Positions 4,318 through 42,768 of a DNA stretch of 64,000 nt are shown piece after piece (positions within the stretch are counted from its first letter, which is position 1; every line of letters begins with the position of its first letter). The position numbers were made by a program, and so were the translations under genes. Where the stretch lies: NCBI GenBank assembly GCA_963555995.3, contig OY821641.1, positions 896,001-960,000 of the forward strand, read 5' to 3'. The DNA is from Vicinamibacteria bacterium. GTDB lineage: Bacteria; Acidobacteriota; Vicinamibacteria; Marinacidobacterales; Marinacidobacteraceae. The notes under the pieces are model-generated. The model made no database searches, was not told the origin of the DNA, and was given only the letters and a program-made list of their open reading frames with translations.

Positions 4318-4729
4318 CCCGGTTGCTGTGAAAACGCCGTCTGGGCGAAAGGTCAACCAGCGCAAGTCGCGCCGCCGGCTGGGACCGCCGGTCTTCAGAC
4401 CGGCACTGGCGATGCGCCGGGCTGACCCGGCTGCCGGGCGAAAGCTCAACCAGCGCAAGTTGCGCCGCCGGCTGGGAGCGCCGGTCTTCAGACCGGCACT
4501 GGCGATGCGCCGGGCTGACCCGGCTGCCGGGCGAATGGTCAACCAGCGCAAGTTGCGCCGCCGGCTGGGAGCGCCGGTCTTCAGACCGGCACACGCTGCG
4601 CGGCAGCGCAGCGCACGGCACGACTCCGGTCGGCGCGGTGGCGCCCCGCGCCCGGTTCATCACCGCGGGCAGCGACACGACATCCGCGGGCCTTCGGCCC
4701 GCTGTGCCGCTCTGAAGAGCGGCGCTCCC
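4301..4729. repeat. REP cluster: three 93-bp tandem REP units followed by a REPIN-like doublet (4567-4729)
   Basis: GGGA(C/G)CGCCGGTCTTCAGACCGGCA at 4381, 4474 and 4567 (period 93). Inverted REP TGCCGCTCTGAAGAGCGGCGCTCCC ends at 4729. Confidence 0.88.
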
Positions 4730-8628: not shown

Positions 8629-8948
8629 GGAGCGCCGGCTTCAGCCGGCACAGCCCGCCGGAGGCGGGCGGCGGGAAGGACCTCATCTGCGGTGATGGCG
8701 CGAAGGCCGGGAACGCCGGCTTCAGCCGGCACAGCCTGCCGGAGGCAGGCGGCGGGAAGGACCTCATCTGCCGTGATGGCACGAAGGCCTGGAACGCCGG
8801 TCTCCAGACCGGCACCCGCTGCGCGAAGCGCAGCGGACTGCACGACGCCGATCCGCGCAAAGGCGTTCGACTCTCGGTCCATCACGGCAAACAGCAACAC
8901 GACATCCGCGGCCCGGCGGGCCGCTGTGCCGGCTGAAGCCGGCGCTCC
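8629..8948. repeat. REP cluster: 81-bp tandem units plus REPIN-like doublet (8791-8948)
   Basis: GGA(G/A)CGCCGGCTTCAGCCGGCA at 8629 and 8710, a variant at 8791, and an inverted REP ending at 8948. Confidence 0.88.
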
Positions 8949-13837: not shown

Positions 13838-14103
13838 GGAACGCCGGCTTCAGCCGGCATCGTCCCGCGCCAGCGGGGCGACCGCGTCGCGGTTGGCTGT
13901 CCGGCCCCGCGACGAGACAGCTTGGAGCGCCGACCTCCGGTCGGCATCGCGCGGAAGCGCGAAACAGGAGGAACCACTCCGGAGTTCGGTCCTTCCCGCC
14001 GCCCGCCTTCGGCGGGCTGTGCCGACCGGAGGTCGGCGTTCCAAGCCGGCAGCGCCATCACGGCGCTCGGCCGACCCGCGGGACTGCACTTACACAGCAA
14101 ACC
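13838..14103. repeat. REP cluster with doublet (13924-14042) and a terminal motif GACTGCACTTACACAGCAAACC
   Basis: GGAACGCCGGCTTCAGCCGGCA at 13838, GGAGCGCCGACCTCCGGTCGGCA at 13924 and its inverse ending at 14042. Confidence 0.82.
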
Positions 14104-14176
14104 TGCGCCATGGTGCTGCGCGATGCCCGGTTGGGGCGGCCGGGGAGACGGAGCCGATGACCCGAGGAGTCGAAGA

Positions 14177-14572
14177 ATGGACGATTTAATCGCTGCCATC
14201 GTGGATGTGCGCGACAAGCTCCGCCGGGGCGTGTTTTCCAACGAAGATCAGGTATCGAAGGGAGTGGTCATGCGACTGCTTCAGCAACTCGGCTGGGATG
14301 TCTACGACCCGACCCAAGTGAGTTCCGAGTTCAAGATTGGCAACAGGAAGGTGGATTACGCCTTGAGGCACGGACCCTTGGGATCCGCCGTTCTGATTGA
14401 GGTCAAGGATGTGGGCAAAGCAACCCCGGCGGGCGAAGATCAGCTCTTTGACTACTGCTTCCGCGAAGGTGTCCCACTGGCGGTGTTGACCGATGGTGGC
14501 GTGTGGAACTTCTACCGGTCGGCTGGCCGGGGCAGCTACGAGCAGAGGCGCTTCGCCGTAACGGCCCTAGAG
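14177..14572 (+). pseudogene. 5' half of an HsdR_N-type PD-(D/E)xK nuclease gene, interrupted by IS256
   Basis: NEDQV..LLQQLGWDV..EF..KVDYAL..LIEVK..QLFDY..AVLTDG.VWNFY. The frame runs into the IS terminal repeat. Confidence 0.8.
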
Positions 14573-15963
14573 GAGAGCTATGTCCGAAAGTGGGTGACGG
14601 CATGATCAGGCGGCGGCGCGGGTTTCGGTTTCGTCGGCCTGGATGCCGTCGGTGAACTGGACGCCCTCGATGACCTGGGTCAGTTTGTCGTAGCCGTTGA
14701 GCCGACGCCAGGTTTCGCTGGCGGCGGTGACCAGCTTGAAGACCATCGCCAGCGCGGTTCGGTGGGAGAGGCATCCCTTGCTGCGAACGGTGCGATGGCG
14801 GACGGTGGCGAACACGCTCTCGATGGGGTTGGTGGTGCGGATGTGCTGCCAGTGCTCGGCGGGGAAGTCGTAGAACGCGAGCAGCGCCTCCTGGTCCTTG
14901 GTCAGGCAACGAACGGCTTCCCCGTATTTCGCCTGGTATTTGGCGGCGAAGGTGTCGAGCGCCTTCTCCGCCTTCTTGCGGCTCTCCGCCATCCAGATCT
15001 GGTGGAGGTCCTGCTTCGCGTTGCGTTGCCGGGACTTGGGCAACTTGTTCAGCACGTTCGCCGTCTTGTGGACCCAGCAGCGCTGCCGGCGGGTCTTGGG
15101 GAAGACCTCGTCCAGCGCCTTCCAGAAGCCCAGCGCACCATCCCCGATCGCCAGCTCCGGGGAGACTTCGAGGCCGCGCCCACGCAGGTCCACCAGTAGC
15201 TCCCGCCAACTCTGGGCGCTCTCCCGGAACCCGGCCTGGAACCCCAACAGTTCCTTCTTGCCCTCCGGGGTGGCGCCGATGAGCACCAGAACGCACTGCT
15301 TCTCGTCTTCCAGCCGGCCCTGCAGGTAGATCCCGTCCGCCCAGACGTAGACATACCGCCGACCCGAGAGATCCCGCCCCCGCCAGCGCTCGTGCTCCGC
15401 CTCCCATGCCGACTTCAGCCGGCCGATCACCCCCGGCGACAGCCCCGATGCCCCCGAGCCCAACAGCTCCGACAGCGCCTCCCCGAAGTCCCCGCTCGAA
15501 ACCCCCAGCAGATACAGCGTCGGCAGCGCCGCGTCCAGCGAGCGCGTCCGCCGCGCGAACCGCGGCAGAAGCCTCGACGAGAACCGAATCCGGTCCTCCC
15601 CGCTGTCCCCGCGATCCCGGACCTTCGGCCGCCGCACCGGAACCGGCCCGATCCCCGTCAGGATCGTCCGCTCCGGGCCGTGGCCGTGACGCACCAGACG
15701 CCGAACTCCGGTTGCCGTCCGATGATCCTCGTACGCCGCCAGCAGGGCAGCCACCTCCGCCTCCACGGCGTGCCGCACCAACTCGCGGGCGCCCGCTCGA
15801 AGAACCTCCGTCAGCGGGTCCTCAACCCCCTCTGGCGAGGGAAGGCGAACAACAGTACTCTCCTTCATGGCGTATCACTCCTCCTTGGAGATGTGGAAGG
15901 TCAGCAACCCCCACGATACGCCACCCCCTTCTCAGCCGTCACCCACTTTCGGACATAGCTCCC
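14573..15963 (-). mobile_element. IS256-family insertion sequence
   Basis: Perfect 27-bp TIRs GAGCTATGTCCGAAAGTGGGTGACGGC (14575-14601 / 15935-15961) enclosing one transposase. No target duplication visible. Confidence 0.93.
14606..15868 (-). CDS. IS256-family (Mutator-type) DDE transposase
   Basis: YVWADGIY, RESAQSWRELL, AIGDGALGFWKAL, QRCWVHK, HIRTTNPIES. Confidence 0.96.
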   Translation of the reverse strand: MKESTVVRLPSPEGVEDPLTEVLRAGARELVRHAVEAEVAALLAAYEDHRTATGVRRLVRHGHGPERTILTGIGPVPVRRPKVRDRGDSGEDRIRFSSRLLPRFARRTRSLDAALPTLYLLGVSSGDFGEALSELLGSGASGLSPGVIGRLKSAWEAEHERWRGRDLSGRRYVYVWADGIYLQGRLEDEKQCVLVLIGATPEGKKELLGFQAGFRESAQSWRELLVDLRGRGLEVSPELAIGDGALGFWKALDEVFPKTRRQRCWVHKTANVLNKLPKSRQRNAKQDLHQIWMAESRKKAEKALDTFAAKYQAKYGEAVRCLTKDQEALLAFYDFPAEHWQHIRTTNPIESVFATVRHRTVRSKGCLSHRTALAMVFKLVTAASETWRRLNGYDKLTQVIEGVQFTDGIQADETETRAAA

Positions 15964-16618
15964 ATCACGGTGCGCCGAGACGCTGAGCCGCTATCTCGCT
16001 TTCGAGGCTGTTCGGTCGGGTCAGTTCGAGAAAGACGTGCAGGGTGACTACGAGGGGCACCAGCGTCAGATCGTGGCGAAGGAACAGATTCCGGACGTGT
16101 TCCGACTGTTGATCGAAGGGGCGGACGTACGCGTCGTTGCCGCAATTGCGGAGGAGGTGGAGGAGCACTGCGGTATTCGTCCGGAGGAGGAGACGGTTCG
16201 TCGCTATCTGCGGCGTGTGGTTCTGTCCAATCCGGAGCCGAGGCCCGTGCCAACACCACAACCCGGTCCTACGCTTGGTAAGCGTCCGGAACTGACCGTT
16301 GGTGGTGAGACGAAAACCTTCCGGACCAACCGGGAATGCCTGATTGAGGTCTTTGAGACTCTGGCGACACGTGATCCGACGTTTTGCGAGCGTTACAGCA
16401 CCAGACGCGTTCACGTGCGTCGACGTCGTCAAGACTTGTCGCCGAGGCAACAGAAATACGCGCAGCAACTCCGGAGTGGCTGGTGGATCGGGACAGGTGG
16501 CCAGATCGAAACGAAGTACCAGCAAGTGCGAACTGCCTGTGATGTGGCGGGGATCGAATACGAACGTGATCTGACGGTACTGTTCGTCAAGGGGCCGAAA
16601 TGGAGCCGTGCCCGTTGA
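15962..16618 (+). pseudogene. 3' half of the interrupted nuclease gene, with a SeqA-like C-terminal domain
   Basis: Open frame starts right after the IS (PSRCAETLSRYLAFEAVRSG...) and continues into ORF 16037..16618. C-terminus reads LIEVFETLATRDPTFCERY...SGWWIGT...ACDVAGIEY. Confidence 0.72.
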
Positions 16619-16745
16619 AGTGAATCCGGAGTAGCTTGCGCAACGCGGCGGCCTGCCGACTCCAAGGCCGCCTAGGCGTCACCACTGGTATTCGGCCCGC
16701 ACCTGAACACACGACCCGGAAGGAGATGAGGGGCAGGAGTGAGCG

Positions 16746-16932
16746 ATGAGCCCGCGCATCGCACGCCGGAGCGCGCCGGGGCGACTCGGAGCGATAGTCG
16801 GAACGCGCTTCGCGGCTGGCCGCGCCCTCCATCCGGACCTGATCCGGCCGCCCCGGGTCCAAGTTCGGCAATGTCTTCGGTATCGTCAGTCCCGCCACTG
16901 CCGCCTTCGAAACGGCCCCGACCGATTCGCGG
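16746..16932 (+). pseudogene. Decayed 5' fragment of an LD-carboxypeptidase, paralog of 21152-22207
   Basis: DNA CCGGACCTGATCCGGCCGCCCCGG...TTCGGTATCGTCAGTCCCGCCACTGCCGCCTTCGAAAC aligns by eye to about 21266-21345. Frameshift near 16862. AGGAG RBS and ATG retained. Confidence 0.8.
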
Positions 16933-16985
16933 CTCCCTCAATCCGGGGGCCGGTGTAGTGTCTTCCGCCGGAGAGGCCCCGCCAT

Positions 16986-17264
16986 TTGAGGAAATCAGAT
17001 TCGCCCGCGCAGACCGGCTCGGAACCGATTCCCGGGTCATTCCGTCCGGGTCGGCTCTTTGGGAGTACGTTGGATGGCGTGCGGGTCATTGCCTCGTTCG
17101 CCGTCAATCTCTTTGGTTCCGGCTCTCGGGGCCGGTACGAGTCCTGGTACCGGCCGACAAGCCTCGCCGGCGACTTCGAGCGCGTTGGCCAGGACTTCTG
17201 GGCGGCTATCGAAGCGAATGGCCCACGCGTTGAAGAAGTTGAAGAAGAACAGAGGGTCCGGTAG
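16986..17264 (+). CDS. Small hypothetical protein
   Basis: GGAGAGG RBS and TTG start. Motif SLAGDFERVGQDFWAAI recalls small proteins found upstream of DUF2335 genes. Confidence 0.5.
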   Translation: MRKSDSPAQTGSEPIPGSFRPGRLFGSTLDGVRVIASFAVNLFGSGSRGRYESWYRPTSLAGDFERVGQDFWAAIEANGPRVEEVEEEQRVR

Positions 17265-17375
17265 CGAGCGCCCACTCGCGCGAGAACCGTCGCCGGGTTC
17301 GTCCGTTGGGGTCGGCCCGGATCCTTCGGGCTCCACGATTGGCGATCCACCGCGCCGTTGATGTGGGGCGGGACC

Positions 17376-18401
17376 TCAGTCGGAGCGTCGCGCGCGGTAG
17401 GCCTGGTCGGGGTGGTTGGGGTTCTCCGGATACTTGAGGACCAACGCGCCCTCGTCCACCAGCACGCGGAGGTGGCGCTGGACGAGGCTCGGCTGGTGCA
17501 TCTGGAGCCAGCGCGCCAGGTCGGCGGCCGTGGTCCACTCGCGGAACTGGCAGATCTGCTGGATCAAGGGGTGCAGGACCTGCCGCGGTGTCCGCTGACC
17601 GAGTGCCAGCACGTTGGGTCGCAGAACCGGTGGCAAGCCTTCGAGGCGTGCTTCCCGTACGGCCCCGGGCGTCCTGGACTCCGCCTCGGCCGGGGCGGGG
17701 GAGCGTTCGGCCTTCTCCGGGGTGGGCGCCGGAACCGGAGCGCGCGGCTCCGGTTCGGAAGGCTCCTCCTCGGGAGGTTCCGGTGCGGGCTGCGGCGGCG
17801 GACGGCTGGGGACCTCCGGGCGGGGTGCGGGTTCTGGCGCGGGCTTCCGCGTTTCGGCGGTCGACGCTCTGCCGGCCGGGGGAAGGGGCTTCGCCGCCGG
17901 CTGGTCCTGTTCCCCCGAGTCGTCGCGGCTCTCCCGCTCGGGGAGGATGGACAGGGGCTCGTCGGCGTGGGAGCGGGGGCCGAAGAAGGAGAGGAACGTC
18001 CGCAGTACTCCGGCGCCCGCCTCCATCTGCGCGCCGATCCGTTTGCCGGCGTCCCCCGTCTCCTTGATCGCCTCCTGGGTTCTGGTGGACTTGCCCTCGG
18101 GGTCGCGGAACGCGCGCGCTCCGGCGGCGGTCCGGGCGCCCAGCGCCTGGAGCAGCGCGCCGACCCAGGCCAGCGCGCGGGCGAGGTGGCGGAGCGCCTT
18201 GACGGTCGGTTCGCGCTGCCTCTTGAGGAACGTCCACATCTTCGGGATGCGGGAGAACAGGAAGGGGACCCAGCTCCACGCTTGGCGGAGCCGGGGACGG
18301 GGTTTGCGAACCCAGGCGCGGATCGCCTCAAGACCGGGAGGTGGCTCCTCCGGCTCCTGAAACAGGCGGAAACGGGAGGGATCGTCGGCCACGGACTCCA
18401 T
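17376..18401 (-). CDS. Hypothetical protein: amphipathic N-terminus, Pro/Glu-rich linker, C-terminal winged HTH (Fic-like/RecG-associated C-terminal type)
   Basis: C-terminus LIQQICQFREWTTAADLARWLQMHQPSLVQRHLRVLVDEGALVLKYPENPNHPDQAYR matches the 'LxxLVxxGxLxLxYPxxPNHPxQAY' wHTH. Confidence 0.75.
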   Translation of the reverse strand: MESVADDPSRFRLFQEPEEPPPGLEAIRAWVRKPRPRLRQAWSWVPFLFSRIPKMWTFLKRQREPTVKALRHLARALAWVGALLQALGARTAAGARAFRDPEGKSTRTQEAIKETGDAGKRIGAQMEAGAGVLRTFLSFFGPRSHADEPLSILPERESRDDSGEQDQPAAKPLPPAGRASTAETRKPAPEPAPRPEVPSRPPPQPAPEPPEEEPSEPEPRAPVPAPTPEKAERSPAPAEAESRTPGAVREARLEGLPPVLRPNVLALGQRTPRQVLHPLIQQICQFREWTTAADLARWLQMHQPSLVQRHLRVLVDEGALVLKYPENPNHPDQAYRARRSD

Positions 18402-18950
18402 GCGTCAGCGCGCCGTGGAATCGTACCGGTTGTCGAGGGAACTCCACGCACTAACCGACTCGGAGGGTGGGAAGTCCACGCATTACGGGGGTCTGTGGGC
18501 GGGGAACTCCATGCATTGGGAGAGCCGGTTGGCGGGAACTCCCAGCACTGGCCGGATCTGCGGACGGGAGGTCCACGCACTGCGGGGGTCTGTTGACCGG
18601 GGACTCCATGCAGTAGGAGAGCCGGTTGGCGGGAACTCCCAGCACTGGCCGGATCTGTGGGCGGGAGGTCCACGCACTGCGGGGGTCCGTTGGCGGGGGA
18701 CTCCATGCAGTAGGAGAGCCGGTTGGCGGGGACTCCCAGCACTGGCCGGGTCTGCGGGCGGGAAGTCCACGCACTGCGGGGGTCTGTTGGCGAGGGACTC
18801 CATGCAGTAGGAGAGCCGGTTGGCGGGAACTCCCAGCACTGGCCGGGTCTCCGGGCGGGAACTCCACGCACTACGAAGGTCTGCTGGTGGGGGACTCCAT
18901 GCATTAGGAGACTCGGTTGGCGCAACGGGGAGCGAAACTCCCAGCGCTGA
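18390..18950. repeat. Phased direct-repeat array: 16-bp core, approximately GGGRASTCCMHGCANT, 97-bp higher-order unit
   Basis: Cores at 18437, 18469, 18502, 18534, 18566, 18599, 18631, 18663, 18696, 18728, 18760, 18793, 18825, 18857, 18890. Degenerate copies near 18391 and 18933. Confidence 0.93.
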
Positions 18951-19056
18951 TTTGTCGCGTGGTGGAACGCCGCGCTTAATGGGGCAACGCCACATGGCCA
19001 GCTGCCGAAAAAGAGTCCTGTGGTTCCGCCAGGGGCCGCGAGGGCGCCAGCGGCTT

Positions 19057-19323
19057 GGAGCGCCGGCTTCAGCCGGCACCCGCTGCGCGGAGCGCAGCGG
19101 ACTGCACGACGGAGGCCCGCGCGATGGCGTTCGACCCCTGGTCCATCACCGCAAACAGCGCGACGACGTCCGCGGGCCTTTGGCCCGCGGTGCCGGCTGA
19201 AGCCGGCGTTCCAAGCCGTTTCCGCCACAACGCCACACGGATTGGCGCAACGCGATGCGGCCACGTAACACCGGGAGTGTCGCCCGCTGTGCGGGCGATG
19301 CCGGTCTGAAGACCGGCGCTCCC
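19057..19323. repeat. REPIN-like doublet (19057-19212) plus a single REP (19299-19323)
   Basis: GGAGCGCCGGCTTCAGCCGGCA ... TGCCGGCTGAAGCCGGCGTTCC around the conserved cargo. Confidence 0.87.
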
Positions 19324-19357
19324 CCCTGGCGCCGGTCGCGCGGATGGATAATCCCGG

Positions 19358-20665
19358 TTGATGACTCGGGACGTGCTTTCCGAACTGCTGCGGGACGGGG
19401 AGAACTCCGGGGTGGAGTTCAAGCGGGACAGCGTGACGCCGGAGAAGCTCGCCCGGGAGATGGCGGCGCTGCTGAACCTCGAAGGCGGGGTGATCCTGCT
19501 GGGGGTCGAGGACGACGGCGCGGTCTCCGGGCTCCGGCGCGATCCGAAGAAACGCGAGGAATGGGTGATGGAGGTGGCCAGGACCCATCTCCGCCCGGGC
19601 GTCATTCCCTTCTGGGAGACCAGCGAGATGCCGGACGGCAACGTCGTCGGGGTGATCTCCCTGCCCGCCGACGCCCCCGACAAGCCGTACAAGGCGAAGC
19701 GCGGCTCGGCGTGGATGACGCAGGTGCGGGTGGGCACGACGACCCGCGACGCCAGCGACGACGAGGAGATGCGCCTCTACGCGCAGTCCCGGCGGCTGCT
19801 CTATGACCACAAGCCGGTTCCGGGCGCGATGCTCGACGACTACGACATGCGGCGGCTCACCAACTACTTCCGCGACATCCGGCAGCAGGAATGTCCGGAA
19901 CTCGCAGACCTCGAGGGCTGGTCGCGGTTGCTTGTGAACGTCGATCTCGCCTTCGAGGATCGCGGCCGGGCGCTTCCCAGCGTCGGTGGACTGCTGCTGT
20001 TCGGCAAGGACCCCAATCGGTGTCTTCCCCAGGCAGGTATTACCGCCGTCGCGTTCGGCGGGGTCGAGAAGGACTACGACATCAAGGCGCGCGCGTTCCT
20101 GCGCGGTCCGCTGGTTTCGCTGTTCGCTCCGGACGACGATCCGTACCGGGGCCGCTACCCGAAGCTCGCGAGATCCTTTTCCGAGCCGGCGGCGGTCATC
20201 GAGGTCGGAGTGATCGAGAAGGCGCTCGACTTCGTGGCGCGGGCGACCGACGTGGAGGGTTTCGTGGACCGAACCGGACGCCGCCGGGAGCGCTGGGACT
20301 ATCCGCTGGATGCGGTGCGCGAAGCGGTCGTGAACGCTGTCGCCCACCGGGACTACACCATCGGCGGGACGGACATCGAACTGGCGATCTACCCGGATCG
20401 CCTGGAGGTCATTTCGCCGGGCCGGCTACCGAACACGGCGACCGTGGAGAAGCTGCGCCTCGGATACCGGTCTCTTCGGAACGACGTGATCCGCGATTTG
20501 CTGACCGCCTACGGTTACATCGAGGCGCTCGGCCTCGGCATTCCGCGCAAGATCATTGCGGGGATGCACGATCACAACGGCACCGATCCGGATCTGATCG
20601 AGGAGGAGAGCCGCTTCATCGTGCGCCTTTGGAAGGAGCGCGAGTCCCACGGCGACCGAGGTTGA
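19358..20665 (+). CDS. Schlafen/AlbA_2 domain plus RecG C-terminal-like (HATPase_c_4) protein
   Basis: GENSGVEFK, AALLNLEGGVILLGVEDDG, YPLDAVREAVVNAVAHRDY, YPDRLEVISPGRL, RN..I..LL..YGYIEALGLGI. Confidence 0.9.
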   Translation: MMTRDVLSELLRDGENSGVEFKRDSVTPEKLAREMAALLNLEGGVILLGVEDDGAVSGLRRDPKKREEWVMEVARTHLRPGVIPFWETSEMPDGNVVGVISLPADAPDKPYKAKRGSAWMTQVRVGTTTRDASDDEEMRLYAQSRRLLYDHKPVPGAMLDDYDMRRLTNYFRDIRQQECPELADLEGWSRLLVNVDLAFEDRGRALPSVGGLLLFGKDPNRCLPQAGITAVAFGGVEKDYDIKARAFLRGPLVSLFAPDDDPYRGRYPKLARSFSEPAAVIEVGVIEKALDFVARATDVEGFVDRTGRRRERWDYPLDAVREAVVNAVAHRDYTIGGTDIELAIYPDRLEVISPGRLPNTATVEKLRLGYRSLRNDVIRDLLTAYGYIEALGLGIPRKIIAGMHDHNGTDPDLIEEESRFIVRLWKERESHGDRG

Positions 20666-20732
20666 GGAACCAGCGGAACGGATCGAGGCGCCATCGGATC
20701 GCGGATCGCGGCATCCGTCGTCGCGGCGGCCG

Positions 20733-21189
20733 GGCTGCGCGACCTTCATCTGGGGGACGTTAGGATTGCCGCGTGGGTCGCTTGGACCCTGATGCTTCCG
20801 CGCCGTGCGGAACGGACACCTTGATGCTTGACGATTCCATGAACCCGGAGGGGTTCGATGGCCGGCAACCGGCTGGAGGAAGTGTGAAGAGGAAAGACTG
20901 GATTCCGTTCGTTTCGCTCGGAGTCTTCATGGCGGTGATGAACCTCACCATCGCAGGGTTCGGTTTCGAGCGGATCAACCGGATCGAGGTCCGGATAGAC
21001 CGGCTCGATGCCCGCATAGACCGGATCGAGGCGCGGATCGAGGCACGCATGGATCGCCTCGAGGACAAACTGAGCGCTCTGGAACAGCGGGTCTCCCGGA
21101 TCGAGGGCGTCCTGAGGATCCGGCTCGACCCGACCGAGCCGCCCGCGGACGGTGTCTCCGGCGCGCCACCGGAGTAGCGGCGCCCCCCG
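20733..21189. repeat. Duplicated cassette, copy 1 (leader plus small membrane/coiled-coil gene)
   Basis: Near-identical to 22249-22688. Confidence 0.9.
20884..21177 (+). CDS. Small membrane-anchored coiled-coil protein
   Basis: GGAGG RBS and GTG start, TM segment WIPFVSLGVFMAVMNLTIAGFGF, heptads RIDRLDARIDRIEAR...LEQRVSRIEG. Confidence 0.75.
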   Translation: MKRKDWIPFVSLGVFMAVMNLTIAGFGFERINRIEVRIDRLDARIDRIEARIEARMDRLEDKLSALEQRVSRIEGVLRIRLDPTEPPADGVSGAPPE

Positions 21190-22207
21190 GCTCACCCGGC
21201 GTGCCGCGATGGGGCTCCTCGGCGGCGCGTTGTCGGCCCCGCTGGCGGTGGCGCGAGTTGCGCAACCGGACCTCATCCGGCCGCCGCGTATCCGGCCCGG
21301 CGACGTGTTCGGCATCGTCAGCCCCGCCACCGCCGCCTTCGAGACCGACCCGACCGAGATCTTCGCGGACGCCTTCCGGGCGGTCGGGCTCGAACCGCGG
21401 CTCGGGTCGAACTACTACCGGCGGCGCGGCTACTTCGCCGGGAGCGACGCCGAGCGGGCGGCGGACATCATGGAGTTCTTCGCCGACTCCGAGGTGAAAG
21501 GCGTCTTCGCCCGGGGCGGCTGGGGGTCGGCGCGCGTCCTGCCGCACCTCGACTACGGCGTGATCCGGGCGAATCCCAAGGTCCTGCTCGGCTACAGCGA
21601 CGCCACCGCGCTCCTCACCGGGGTCCACGCGAAGACGGGGCTGATCGTCATGCACGGCCCCGGGCCGGGGAACCGCTTCTCGACCGAACACTTCCGCCGG
21701 ACCCTGATGGAAGGCGAAGCGGACCTGCTGGAGAACCCGGTAGGGGACCCCGGGAACCACATCGTGCCGCGGGAGCACCGGGTCCGCACCATCACCGGCG
21801 GGCGGGTGACGGGACCGCTGCTCGGCGGCAACCTGACGGTGCTGACCGCGATCATGGGGTCGGAGTACCTGCCGGACTTCACCGGCTCGATCCTCTTCCT
21901 CGAGGACGTGGACGAGGCGGTGTACCGGGTGGACCGGATGCTGACCACCCTGAAGCTCGCCGGGGTGCTGGACCGGATCGCGGGGTTCATCTTCGGGCGC
22001 TGCACGGACTGCGACCCGGGATCGGGGTTCGGCTCGCTCACCCTGGAGCAGGTGCTCGAGGACCACATCGCTCCGCTCGGCATCCCGGCCTTCCGGGGGA
22101 GCATGATCGGTCACATCCCCGAGCAGTTCACGCTTCCCATCGGGGGCCGCGCGGAAATGGACGCCGACCACGGCACGATTCGCCTCCTCGAGCCCGCCGT
22201 CGGGTAA
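21152..22207 (+). CDS. LD-carboxypeptidase (peptidase S66) with a Tat-like signal
   Basis: GIVSPA, AGSDAERAAD, ARGGWG, LGYSDAT, HGP, GGNL, LFLEDVDE, IGH. Tat-like LTRRAAMG. Start uncertain. Confidence 0.92.
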   Translation: MSPARHRSSGAPRLTRRAAMGLLGGALSAPLAVARVAQPDLIRPPRIRPGDVFGIVSPATAAFETDPTEIFADAFRAVGLEPRLGSNYYRRRGYFAGSDAERAADIMEFFADSEVKGVFARGGWGSARVLPHLDYGVIRANPKVLLGYSDATALLTGVHAKTGLIVMHGPGPGNRFSTEHFRRTLMEGEADLLENPVGDPGNHIVPREHRVRTITGGRVTGPLLGGNLTVLTAIMGSEYLPDFTGSILFLEDVDEAVYRVDRMLTTLKLAGVLDRIAGFIFGRCTDCDPGSGFGSLTLEQVLEDHIAPLGIPAFRGSMIGHIPEQFTLPIGGRAEMDADHGTIRLLEPAVG

Positions 22208-22248
22208 GGCTGCCCCCCAACCGGTTCCGCCGGCGGCGTCTTCCGGAC

Positions 22249-22688
22249 GGCTGCGCGGCCTTCACCCGCGGGTGGTGAGGTTAGGATTGCCGGGTGGGTC
22301 GCTTGGACCCTGACGCTTCCGCGCCGTGCGGAACGGACACCTTGATGCTTGACGATTCCATGAACCCGGAGGGGTTCGATGGCCGGCAACCGGCTGGAGG
22401 AAGCGTGAAGAGGAAAGACTGGATTCCGTTCGTTTCGCTCGGAGTCTTCATGGCGGTGATGAACCTCACCATCGCAGGGTTCGGTTTTGAGCGGATCAAC
22501 CGGCTCGAGGCCCGGATGGACCGGATCGAGGCGCGCATGGACCGCCTGGAGGAAAGGCTGAGCGCCCTGGAACAGCGGGTCTCCCGGATCGAGGGCGTCC
22601 TGATGATCCGCGTGGGTCCGACCGAGCCGGATCCCGCGCCGCCCGCGGACGGCGCCTCCGGCGCGCCACCGGAATAGCGGCGCCCGCC
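22249..22688. repeat. Duplicated cassette, copy 2
   Basis: Near-identical to 20733-21189, with a shorter heptad tract. Confidence 0.9.
22405..22677 (+). CDS. Small membrane-anchored coiled-coil protein (paralog of 20884-21177)
   Basis: Same TM segment, fewer heptads. Confidence 0.75.
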   Translation: MKRKDWIPFVSLGVFMAVMNLTIAGFGFERINRLEARMDRIEARMDRLEERLSALEQRVSRIEGVLMIRVGPTEPDPAPPADGASGAPPE

Positions 22689-22754
22689 GTTCCACCGGCG
22701 GGCCGGCCCACCGGGAGGGCTGACCAGCGGTTCACGCCGACTCGGCGCGTTGTC

Positions 22755-22789
22755 TTGACAGAACGATATAACTAGGGTTATAGTTATAT
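22755..22789 (+). promoter_or_regulatory. Sigma-70 promoter overlapped by an ArsR-type operator
   Basis: TTGACA (22755-60), 18 bp, TATAGT (22779-84). Inverted repeat ATATAACTA-N6-TAGTTATAT at 22766-22789. Confidence 0.8.
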
Positions 22790-22793
22790 TGTC

Positions 22794-23180
22794 ATGACGA
22801 CAACGGCCCCGCTCAACGAGGAACTCGCGGCGACGAGTCTGGGGGCGCTCGGGAACCCGACGCGCCTGCGGCTCTACCGGCTGCTGGTAAGGGCCGGACC
22901 GTCCGGTCTCCCCGTGGGGACGCTCGTCCGGACGCTCGGCGCGCCGGCTTCCACGCTCGCCCACCACCTCGCCTGCCTGACCCGGGCCGGCCTCGTGGAG
23001 CAGGAGCAGCGGGGACGGGAGGTGCGTTCGCGTCCCGATTTCGCCGCCATGACCCGGCTCATGGACTTTCTGACCGCCGAATGCTGCACGGGTGCGCCTT
23101 CGGCCCCCGCGACGGAGGAAACCGACGGTGTCCCGACTGCAACTTGCCCTGAATGTGACGAACCTCGAGAAGGCGATTGA
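22794..23180 (+). CDS. arsR: ArsR/SmtB family repressor
   Basis: ALGNPTRLRLYRLLV..G..VG.L....GAPASTLAHHL..L..AGLV..EQRGR, C-terminal AECC. Confidence 0.88.
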   Translation: MTTTAPLNEELAATSLGALGNPTRLRLYRLLVRAGPSGLPVGTLVRTLGAPASTLAHHLACLTRAGLVEQEQRGREVRSRPDFAAMTRLMDFLTAECCTGAPSAPATEETDGVPTATCPECDEPREGD

Positions 23181-23570: not shown

Positions 23571-24238
23571 GCGCACCCCGCCGGGCATGAAAGCGGCGGG
23601 AACGGCTGGGAGCGCCGCTCTTCAGAGCGGCACAGCGGGCCGAAGGCGCGCGGATGTCGTATCGCTGTCTGCGGGGATGAACGGACAGCAGAGCACCACC
23701 GCGCCGCTCGACATGGCGCCGTGCGCTGCGCTATCGCGCAGCGCGTGCCGGTCTGCCGTTGTGAACGGCCCCACCGGGAGAAACCCCCATGTGCGTGTCC
23801 TGTTGCGCACCCCACCGGGCATGAAGACGGCGGGAACGGCTGGGAGCGCCGCTCTTCAGAGCGGCACAGCGGGCCGAAGGCGCGCGGATGTCGTATCGCT
23901 GTCTGCGGGGATGAACGGACAGCAGAGCACCGCCGCGCCGCTCGACATGGCGCCGTGCGCTGCGCTATCGCGCAGCGCGTGCCGGTCTGCCGTTGTGAAC
24001 GGCCCCACCGGGAGAAACCCCCATGTGCGTGTCCTGTTGCGCACCCCGCCGGGCATGAAAGCGGCGGGAACGGCTGGGAGCGCCGCTCTTCAGAGCGGCA
24101 CAGCGGGCCGAAGGCGCGCGGATGTCGTATCGCTGTCTGCGGGGATGAACGGACAGCAGAGCACCGCCGCGCCGCTCGACATGGCGCCGTGCGCTGCGCT
24201 ATCGCGCAGCGCGTGCCGGTCTGAAGACCGGCGCTCCC
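23571..24238. repeat. Three tandem 234-bp units, each carrying a REPIN-like element
   Basis: Units start at 23571, 23805 and 24039. Only the last has an intact right-hand REP. Confidence 0.92.
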
Positions 24239-41685: not shown

Positions 41686-42768
41686 ATGTCCGACCTTCCC
41701 CCCGCCTCGCCGTTCCGTCTGCTGCGGCGGACCCTGCTCGCCTGGTTCCGGGAGAACCAGCGTCCGCTCCCGTTTCGCGAGTCCCCCGACGCCTGGCGCG
41801 TCTGGGTTTCGGAGGTGATGCTCCAGCAGACGCGGGTGGAAGCCATGTTGCCGCGCTACCGGGAGTTCGTGGCGCGCTTTCCGAGTCCGGCGGCGCTGGC
41901 CGACGCCCCCGAGGACGAGGTGCTGGGGGCCTGGGCGGGCCTCGGCTACTACGGCCGCGCCCGCGCGCTCCACCGGGCGGCGCGGCAACTGGCCGCGGCG
42001 GACCGGGGCATTCCCGAGACCGCCGAGGCGCTCCGGCGGCTCCCCGGGATCGGCGACTACACGGCGGCGGCGATCGCCTCGATCGCCTTCGGCGCACCGG
42101 TCGCTGCGGTGGACGGAAACGTGCGCCGGGTGCTGTCCCGGCTGTTCGCGGTCGAGGGGTTCCGGGGGCGGGCGCCGTTCGAGGGGCGGGTCCGGGAGCT
42201 GGCCGACCGGCTGATGGAAGCGGACGGCGCCCGGGACCCGGGCGACTGGAACCAGGCGGTGATGGAACTCGGCGCCACGGTCTGCACCCCGTCCGCTCCC
42301 CGCTGCGGGAGCTGTCCGGTCCGCGAGTTCTGCTGGGCGCGGATAGCCGGGAGGCAGGAAGAGCTTCCCGAGCGCCCGCCGCGCCCCCGGACCGTGTCCG
42401 TCCGGCTCGCCGCGGCCGTCGTTCGGGACCCGGAGGGGCGGATTCTCCTGTTCCGCCGCCGGGAGAGCCCGATGCGGGGCCTCTACGAGCTTCCCGGCGG
42501 CGAGTGCCGCGAGGGCGAAGCGCCCGAGGCGGCGCTGGTCCGGGAGACCACCGCGCGCTACGGGATCCGGCTGCGTCCCGGCCGTCCGCTGGCCGGATTC
42601 CGGCACACCGTCATGAACCGGAGGATCGCGGTCCTTCCCTACGAGGCCGCGTTCGAGGGGCCGCCACCGACGGCCCCGCCGGGCGCCCGCTTCGTCCACC
42701 CGCGTGACCTCGACCGGATCCCGTCGGGCTCGATGCTGTCGAAGGCCCTGCGCGGCCTCGCCGACTAG
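41686..42768 (+). CDS. mutY: A/G-specific adenine glycosylase
   Basis: VSEVMLQQT, WAGLGYY, LPGIGDYTA, VDGNVRRV, C-X6-C-X2-C-X5-C cluster, NUDIX-like tail. Confidence 0.95.
   Translation: MSDLPPASPFRLLRRTLLAWFRENQRPLPFRESPDAWRVWVSEVMLQQTRVEAMLPRYREFVARFPSPAALADAPEDEVLGAWAGLGYYGRARALHRAARQLAAADRGIPETAEALRRLPGIGDYTAAAIASIAFGAPVAAVDGNVRRVLSRLFAVEGFRGRAPFEGRVRELADRLMEADGARDPGDWNQAVMELGATVCTPSAPRCGSCPVREFCWARIAGRQEELPERPPRPRTVSVRLAAAVVRDPEGRILLFRRRESPMRGLYELPGGECREGEAPEAALVRETTARYGIRLRPGRPLAGFRHTVMNRRIAVLPYEAAFEGPPPTAPPGARFVHPRDLDRIPSGSMLSKALRGLAD

Follow-up and report, generated by a model that had tools for sequence, protein, structure and literature searches.

The window examined here is a 64,000-nt stretch of contig C1 (positions 896001-960000; GenBank OY821641.1) from the genome of a Vicinamibacteria bacterium, hereafter G000. 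Its subject is a non-coding array of phased direct repeats lying beside a gene for a winged helix-turn-helix (wHTH) protein. The locus comprises the following features, in window coordinates.

18437..18905, plus strand: array of 15 cores, consensus GGGRASTCCMHGCAHT, at 32/33/32-bp spacing; likely (putative) binding platform.
18391..18406, plus strand: left outlying core, at 46 bp from core 1; it overlaps the opening codons of the wHTH gene, which is on the opposite strand.
18933..18948, plus strand: right outlying, degenerate core, 43 bp (about 4 helical turns) after core 15.
17376..18401, minus strand: gene for a 341-aa wHTH protein, with cationic amphipathic N-terminal helices (about aa 20-140), a disordered Pro-rich linker and a C-terminal winged helix (aa 256-338); candidate cognate binder.

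Core starts were placed at 18437, 18469, 18502 and onwards to 18890; the re-measured gaps are exactly 32/33/32 bp, giving a higher-order unit of 97 bp. Tandem Repeats Finder reports the same organization, with a 97-bp period in 5.0 copies and a 32-bp period in 14.7. Nine of the 16 core columns are invariant. Within and between the three classes, identity is respectively 0.92 and 0.77 for cores, and 0.81 and 0.54 for spacers. A sequence-only reading of this DNA had described fifteen cores at this spacing with two further copies, a 97-bp unit with three spacer classes, a core common to all classes next to diverged spacers, and an absence of coding capacity; all of this is borne out. The left outlier, being 46 bp from core 1, is out of helical phase. 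When contig C1 was scanned with a degenerate 16-mer, the 23 matches all fell inside just 3 arrays.

Stops interrupt five of the six reading frames of the array. The sole open frame, on the minus strand, belongs to a 927-aa GC-rich shadow open reading frame (ORF) antisense to the neighbouring AlbA gene; it is out of frame with the wHTH gene, and its peptide is non-repetitive. The wHTH frame itself is closed by a stop two codons upstream of its own ATG. A coding repeat is thus ruled out for the window array by the stops, the non-triplet period and the stop just upstream of the wHTH gene.

An assembly artefact, a concern raised in the sequence-only reading, is ruled out by Logan contigs of 4 runs (2 studies) that cover the array. 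Zero-difference pieces from run X1 extend over 17300-18548, 18623-18726, 18701-18823 and 18817-19077, no single Logan piece spanning the whole array, and the array joints in these contigs suggest shorter strain variants. In run X5, one contig at depth 17 represents a related strain; it carries 18400 A>G, with loss of the ATG and retention of the core-like word. The outlier does overlap the start codon in the window sequence, as had been pointed out, and this overlap is not robust, since the X5 strain lost the ATG. A second allele, in runs X1, X2 and X4, combines compensating 1-nt indels at 18259 and 18321, in the N-terminal coding region, with a shorter array.

The full-length neighbouring protein has no name in Pfam, NCBIfam or PADLOC, and a sequence search of the PDB returned nothing under E 0.01. 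Its wHTH domain matches Fic-like_C (PF21247) weakly, at E 0.0011, below the cut-off. All six paralogues found in G000 score 18-24 bits, under the 27-bit curated cut-off, while the family member P0178 reaches 26 bits and linked Schlafen-ATPase ("Schlatpase") proteins exceed the cut-off. An AlphaFold2 model built on 47 sequences shows four long N-terminal helices (predicted local distance difference test, pLDDT, about 75) and, beyond a disordered linker, a wHTH domain with pLDDT about 97. The N-terminal helices are cationic and amphipathic, with a hydrophobic moment up to 0.49 and no clear transmembrane stretch, and their Trp/Arg-rich character is conserved in the 47 aligned proteins. The best weak Foldseek matches of the model are the Fic protein 4RGL (top match, E 0.012, root-mean-square deviation 1.5 Å over 51 columns), MarR/ArsR proteins, AspA (rank 5, E 0.17) and 3LMM. 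Among 50%-identity representatives, the family profile retrieves 2740 proteins at E<=0.001 and 75 at E<=1e-30; the full-length family is small. On plasmids, tblastn gave 4 weak matches in Pseudoalteromonas, and the one inspected is a gene within a type I restriction-modification (R-M) operon. Two relatives, P0152 and P0190, apparently carry two tandem copies of the wHTH domain.

The pairing of gene and array is recurrent. The wHTH gene has five paralogues in G000, and all 6/6 adjoin an array, each with its own core: four arrays lie upstream at a period of about 32 bp, and two just past the stop at about 21 bp. By comparison, when 1-kb stretches are drawn at random, 1.6% of them lie within 600 bp of an array. 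The exact-word detector used for this count recovers 5/6 paralogues, the sole miss being the heterogeneous array of the window. More widely, the domain occurs in 22/28 family genomes, and of 67 family domains 58 adjoin an array, which is upstream in 44 cases and downstream in 14. Whether arrays accompany homologues of 17376-18401, a question posed in the sequence-only reading, is therefore answered positively. The 67 domains leave out weak or partial ones (L079, L124, L139, the second match in L145, L146, L147) and four further weak matches; a non-triplet filter removed three false-positive arrays (L103 twice, L088), which were coding heptads or noise.

Cores also follow the protein. Core similarity stays at a background of 10.0-10.4 for the 1481 pairs with less than 60% domain identity and rises to 16.8-18.0 for the 85 pairs above 70% (Mantel test, 0/1000). 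Particular recognition helices go with particular cores: MH[QK]PSLV[QY]RHL with GAACTCCAYGCACT, MD[AE]SNLQKRHL with GAGCCATGGTCAA, and MDPANLAKRHL with TCCGGTCGATA. The family genes at L098 and L143, close in sequence to the window gene, have the same GAACTCCATGCACT core upstream. Because gene and array are linked, such covariation is expected from co-inheritance alone, a point against binding as its cause; unlinked arrays were therefore tested. The TGTGATTC class is present in 1/28 genomes, the only one with its cognate gene. The TCCGGTCGATA class is present in 13/28, and matches gene presence in 7/7 long-contig genomes of the genus. The window core itself forms two further arrays, at C1:1141760 and C1:3309119; no wHTH gene adjoins either of them.

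The spacing of cores was analyzed on 749 gaps. We counted 543 at 31-34 bp and 125 at 18-23 bp, with only 3 at 24-27, 3 at 35-41 and 1 at 45-51. Spacings thus fall at 2 or 3 helical turns, and some arrays alternate 21 and 32 bp. Gap classes were used here since the Rayleigh phase statistic is uninformative between periods, most gaps being 32. Folding of the window array gave z = -0.3 and -0.4 against a period-preserving control, with no consistent signal in 14 arrays, and an Rfam search returned only one chance hit (E 0.39), outside the array. Recognition as double-stranded DNA is indicated, because gaps are whole-turn, no fold signal is left when periodicity is kept, and Rfam gives no match.

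The same C-terminal wHTH domain ends two other kinds of protein, those combining Schlafen(AlbA_2) and HATPase_c_4 domains, and Fic proteins. The Schlafen-ATPase proteins (best 120 of 454) have 7-residue linker repeats, and the codons of these repeats are unusual. In 68 Schlafen-ATPase-wHTH genes (80 loci minus 10 without a full C-terminus and 2 duplicates), Leu is written TTA in 166/245 repeat units versus 63/3900 elsewhere, and Ser is written TCT in 190/230 versus 99/1730, genes and repeat copies not being independent in these counts. TTA is the majority codon in 42/63 genes, 164/182 gaps have a 21-bp period, and the rare codons are held across genes whose GC content at third codon positions (GC3) ranges from 0.44 to 0.86. 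At the GTDB loci L155-L234, the LSSN/LSTN/LSPK heptads preceding the C-terminal wHTH of Schlafen-GHKL proteins correspond to a DNA repeat with consensus about CTTATCTAGTAACCC, a 21-bp period and strongly atypical codons; such linker repeats are likely in-gene binding sites. At 30 canonical PF21247 loci, CAAGT/GAAGT-type repeats of 12 bp were seen in 12 cases, 11-bp repeats in shifting frame in 3 and a mix of 11 and 12 bp in 1; the others have fewer than 3 exact copies or no ORF. The 11-bp form was seen out of frame in the Fic-like_C genes of L262, L265, L281 and L289, the 12-bp "TPQV" form being commoner. Because they are read in shifting frames, the 11-bp repeats do not reflect peptide constraint, and judging from codons and frames, the in-gene repeats are constrained as DNA.

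The nearest Schlafen-ATPase relatives carry DRGEL/DRPEL heptads in the linker; in the 3 genes, out of 9 loci, where the underlying DNA was seen (two of these genes being almost identical), it best matches a genus core and has the orientation of that core. We infer that binding repeats inside genes gave rise to the non-coding arrays. The possibility that the array is a frameshifted coding remnant, mentioned in the sequence-only reading as a way for binding to fail, is therefore partly true through this kinship with Schlafen-ATPase and Fic linker repeats; it leaves the binding reading standing, because the repeats within genes are under constraint as DNA too.

About 30 phased arrays were found in G000 by Tandem Repeats Finder and a k-mer scan, with periods of 20-21, 32-33 or 53 bp and at least 8 different cores, most of which share a GARCT-n-(C/G)A(C/T)T-like grammar. 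The 30 arrays are spread uniformly along C1 (Kolmogorov-Smirnov p 0.98), and both GC-skew extremes (1.62 and 3.52 Mb) are a long way from the window array. On the gene calls made in this analysis, 21/24 solo arrays share the orientation of the gene that they follow (p 0.0003), often starting no more than 100 bp past its stop, and convergent gaps hold 14/30 arrays versus 154 of the 731 gaps genome-wide. The neighbours of 23 solo arrays were read, giving raw counts without a baseline: 12 abut R-M, toxin-antitoxin (TA) or ATPase-nuclease genes, 4 more lie within islands of such genes, housekeeping genes adjoin 6, and the context of 1 is unknown. A cognate wHTH was not found for the classes AAGACCGTAGAAC, GATCGRGGCATGAT, GCCAATTC, GATTGTCTATTA and GTGGATCA (C1:114456-114790; 1700582, 2278200, 3573942; 41942-42133; 1224681; 3190783), and the GCCAATTC array lies directly 3' of a Schlafen-ATPase gene with an HTH-like tail. 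A separate form has 20-21-bp repeats in two clusters 120-240 bp apart:

C1:183418-183853, 682498-682819, 686768-687061, 1700582-1700988, 1820666-1821028, 2814199-2814604, 2969487-2969840, 3573942-3574301: two-cluster arrays of G000.

The spacers of these arrays have an AA/TT/AT periodicity of about 10.3 bp, with peaks at 10, 20-21 and 30 bp, which suggests curved, looped DNA.

We consider it highly probable that the window array is a helically phased platform bound by the wHTH domain of its neighbour. The earlier proposal of a phased, cooperative binding array for this protein keeps strong comparative support, from the 6/6 and 58/67 pairings and from cores that follow the protein, and it sheds the iteron and parC labels discussed below. 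One wHTH molecule would bind each core, so that copies would be aligned on one face of the DNA every three turns, and binding over its own upstream region would repress the wHTH gene. The same protein would also bind the unlinked arrays with the same core at C1:1141760 and C1:3309119, and the cationic amphipathic helices would hold linked and unlinked array loci at the inner membrane. At gene ends, the membrane-held complex might also be an insulator or a roadblock to read-through. For binding, self-regulation and membrane anchoring taken jointly, we rate the chances somewhat better than even.

Several observations weigh against this interpretation. At least three core classes of G000 (ATCATGCC, AGACCGTAG, GCCAATTC) have no assigned protein. 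Six fragmented genomes have TCCGGTCGATA arrays with no cognate gene found; the GTCACTA class occurs in 3/28 genomes, two of them with no cognate gene found, and G014 has the GTCACTA gene with no exact match to the pattern. L074 shares the recognition helix of the window protein and has a different core, L105 holds two core classes, and in G003, G004, G008 and G010 no gene clearly cognate to their CCAYGC-type arrays was found. With the strict detector 9/67 domains are without an array, including L143, whose array was filtered (all gaps being multiples of 3), and L073 and L130, which have no upstream DNA. The higher identity of cores than of spacers at related loci (0.84 versus 0.68, core higher in 66/83 pairs), in itself a point in favour of binding, is biased by the choice of cores by pattern. 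Locus L114 (G017:C1:2587500-2592700), with 69 copies downstream of a family gene, mixes many 28-29-bp gaps with 31/32; it supplies most of the 28-30-bp gap class and is the main departure from whole-turn phasing. As to the membrane step, membrane binding is predicted from helix composition only, Foldseek on the model gave nothing at E<=0.001, an Atlas search gave no usable match to the protein, and about 10 family genes have no in-frame N-terminal domain (broken genes or indel errors).

A first alternative, which we judge unlikely, sees in the array no more than an autoregulatory operator or a transcription roadblock: on binding it, the wHTH protein would repress its own and neighbouring defence genes or stop read-through, and its N-terminal helices would only oligomerise, with no membrane role. 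The 44/58 arrays just upstream of their gene, the direction of solo arrays and their excess in convergent gaps all fit this. On the other side, 15-69 sites per array and many unlinked arrays would exceed the needs of an operator, a scan of 18300-19400 found no sigma-70-like promoter, and the Trp/Arg-rich helices are kept over 47 aligned proteins.

Less likely again is a DNA "antitoxin", with the wHTH as a general tether: an effector, be it a Schlafen nuclease, a Fic enzyme or, in the window protein, a putative membrane-damaging helical domain, would be kept on repeats within or close to its own gene until the DNA is lost or degraded and the effector goes free. The same wHTH domain with cis repeats does go with Schlafen-GHKL and Fic domains, 12 of the 23 solo arrays, in the raw counts above, abut R-M, TA or ATPase-nuclease genes and 4 more lie in islands of these, and the N-terminal helices of the window protein are cationic and Trp-rich. 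Bacterial Schlafens are reported as anti-phage tRNases in the accessible text of PMC13056530. Against this stand the lack of PADLOC and NCBIfam matches for the protein, the 6/23 solo arrays beside housekeeping genes and some genes seemingly without an array (L094, L107).

Very improbable, in our estimate, are neutral minisatellites, that is, slippage-expanded remnants of a coding linker, co-inherited with the gene and bound by no protein. The DRGEL heptads matching a genus core, the copy number variation between strains and the homology of spacers across classes would all be accounted for in this way. Yet unit lengths are confined to about 21 and 32 bp, even inside one array where the two alternate, unlinked arrays retain the core of a resident gene, and coding repeats keep rare codons over the whole GC3 range and can be 11 bp long and out of frame. 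Finally, a protein-bound repeat RNA, type III antitoxin-like or guide-like, for which the sequence-only reading had proposed the array as template, is barely credible: its units of about 32 nt do lie upstream of the gene, and z reaches -4.9 against plain dinucleotide shuffles, but that value is due to tandem structure and vanishes in the period-preserving control, arrays are found in both orientations with respect to the gene, and spacings fit B-DNA turns.

Returning to the bound, phased platform, the comparative support is unusually strong and points to an undescribed protein-DNA module of wide evolutionary kinship. This would give a testable function to an uncharacterised domain of many Schlafen-ATPase and Fic proteins, and would recast repetitive linkers as DNA sites, with overlapping protein and DNA codes. 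The 58 protein-site pairs, with different 14-16-bp cores, offer a natural panel for a wHTH recognition code, and orthogonal protein-array pairs could be used as DNA-labelling or tethering parts. A broader proposal is speculative, and we think it improbable: the Fic-like_C wHTH would be a widespread, overlooked "self-tether" on phased repeats in its own gene, where it would hold Schlafen, Fic or membrane-active effectors on the DNA, the whole serving as an antitoxin encoded in DNA or as a genome-integrity sensor; in this Acidobacteriota family the module would have been freed from coding constraint and have diversified into orthogonal pairs of protein and array whose recognition code could be read. 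Under the self-tether proposal, the "low-complexity" TPQV, LSSN and DRGEL linkers would be read-outs of DNA sites. If the anchoring or the antitoxin step is true, it would constitute a new way to organise or guard defence islands. A literature search, extending to few subscription papers and preprint supplements, found no paper on these arrays or on DNA binding by Fic-like_C, and the accessible part of PMC12707154 held nothing relevant.

Other features of the window surround the array:

19043..19226, no strand assigned: REP-type double-hairpin element with 38-nt inverted arms, right of the array; one of several hundred copies in the genome, of a family separate from the arrays.
19361..20665, plus strand: divergent Schlafen/AlbA_2 + HATPase_c_4 ("Schlatpase") gene without C-terminal wHTH; context only.

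The double-hairpin family is also present at 4343-4592, 8629-8815 and 23571-24223, some copies being tandem (93, 81, 234 bp), and has BLAST matches in about 600 one-kb bins of the genome. Adjacency to these elements (24/34 clusters versus 25% of random positions) was left unused, as intergenic location is uncontrolled in that count and clusters include duplicates and false ones. At 20773-21177 and 22294-22677 (plus strand), and at L055:1976-2248, near-duplicate small proteins with a hydrophobic segment contain 21/33-nt coding heptad repeats; they form a multi-copy family that can mimic arrays in repeat scans. At 13922-14605, an HSDR_N-domain gene is apparently truncated by an IS256 (Mutator) transposase gene at 14606-15868.

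Iterons are among the known systems that come closest. In Rep_3-type plasmid replicons such as P1, F, RK2 and R6K, phased direct repeats of about 16-20 bp lie beside a winged-helix protein gene. The window array is alike in its phased direct repeats (16-bp cores, 32/33/32 bp) by a wHTH gene; it differs in being chromosomal and one of about 30 arrays of many specificities. Among neighbours there was no Pfam or NCBIfam match to a Rep-family initiator, the wHTH being a single Fic-like_C-like domain; no DnaA box was found at <=1 mismatch in 15000-23000, nor any AT-rich unwinding block, GC content being 0.64-0.77 in 200-bp bins over 17800-19800. As for centromeres, these are single or origin-proximal sites, in contrast to 30 uniformly spread arrays, and a search of 13 proteins of the window and of 50 genes next to other arrays found no partition NTPase (TubZ, ParM, ParA). 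Of the iteron or parC-type analogy drawn in the sequence-only reading, the helix-phased repeats remain; the missing Rep or partition NTPase, DnaA boxes and AT-rich block and the uniform spread tell against the rest.

Other classes of repeats differ more. Repetitive extragenic palindromic elements and bacterial interspersed mosaic elements (REP/BIME) are dispersed intergenic palindromic hairpin repeats, often just past stops and in convergent gaps. Window-type arrays resemble them in dispersed intergenic placement and differ in being direct, non-palindromic, helix-phased and paired with wHTH genes; with no long inverted repeat inside the array and no fold signal, this model was rejected. So was a miniature inverted-repeat transposable element, as 32-bp-class arrays share neither ends nor target duplications. 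Clustered regularly interspaced short palindromic repeats (CRISPR), which have identical repeats, unique spacers and cas genes close by, were set aside on spacers that recur in three classes; the CRISPR array of this genome (61-bp period, about 67 repeats) is elsewhere, at C1:1462147-1466199. TIGR arrays have units of about 36 nt whose dual spacers are unique, and a Tas gene with a Nop domain lies next to them; units of 32-33 nt with recurring spacers, and neighbours without a Nop-domain match, do not agree with this. Type III TA systems (ToxI/AbiQ) combine a structured repeat RNA, a terminator and a ToxN-family RNase; here the neighbour protein has no ToxN match, and a scan by the array found no terminator-like site. 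A genome-wide PF13958 search also gave no match, though the positive control had none either. PhaF/MLDS-like proteins are lipid-body tethers, and this function was rejected for lack of a PhaC_N match in the 93% complete genome (the control matched 1/14); a WS/DGAT search of it gave no match, though its control likewise had none.

In TubR-tubC and AspA of pNOB8, a wHTH protein coats repeated DNA as a superhelical complex, according to the part of PMC9178275 consulted. The combination of wHTH and repeated DNA is alike, AspA is among the weak structural matches above, and coating at the window array may be supposed from the pairing of arrays with wHTH genes and from cores that follow the protein. 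From what is accessible of two preprints, RicO/ricS of S. aureus and RocS of S. pneumoniae bridge DNA to the membrane through a DNA-binding domain and an amphipathic helix (bioRxiv 10.64898/2026.03.06.710092, 10.1101/2024.07.25.605149). The window protein is predicted to share this pair of elements. As far as those accessible descriptions go, and by description rather than sequence, the domain order is reversed and a Pro linker replaces the coiled coil; the window family is multi-paralogue, patchy (22/28 family genomes) and paired with tandem phased arrays, which are uniformly spread, whereas RicO sites are origin-proximal. The parts seen of the Schlatpase preprint (bioRxiv 10.64898/2026.05.29.728809) and of PMC13056530 note C-terminal HTH fusions and do not mention linker repeats. 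Schlatpase and Fic proteins (PF21247; PDB 4RGL, 3LMM) have the same C-terminal wHTH, and cis repeats related in sequence and orientation. Their repeats number 2-7 copies in a coding linker (11, 12, 21 bp), whereas the window family has non-coding 21/32-bp arrays, and amphipathic helices replace the enzyme domains.

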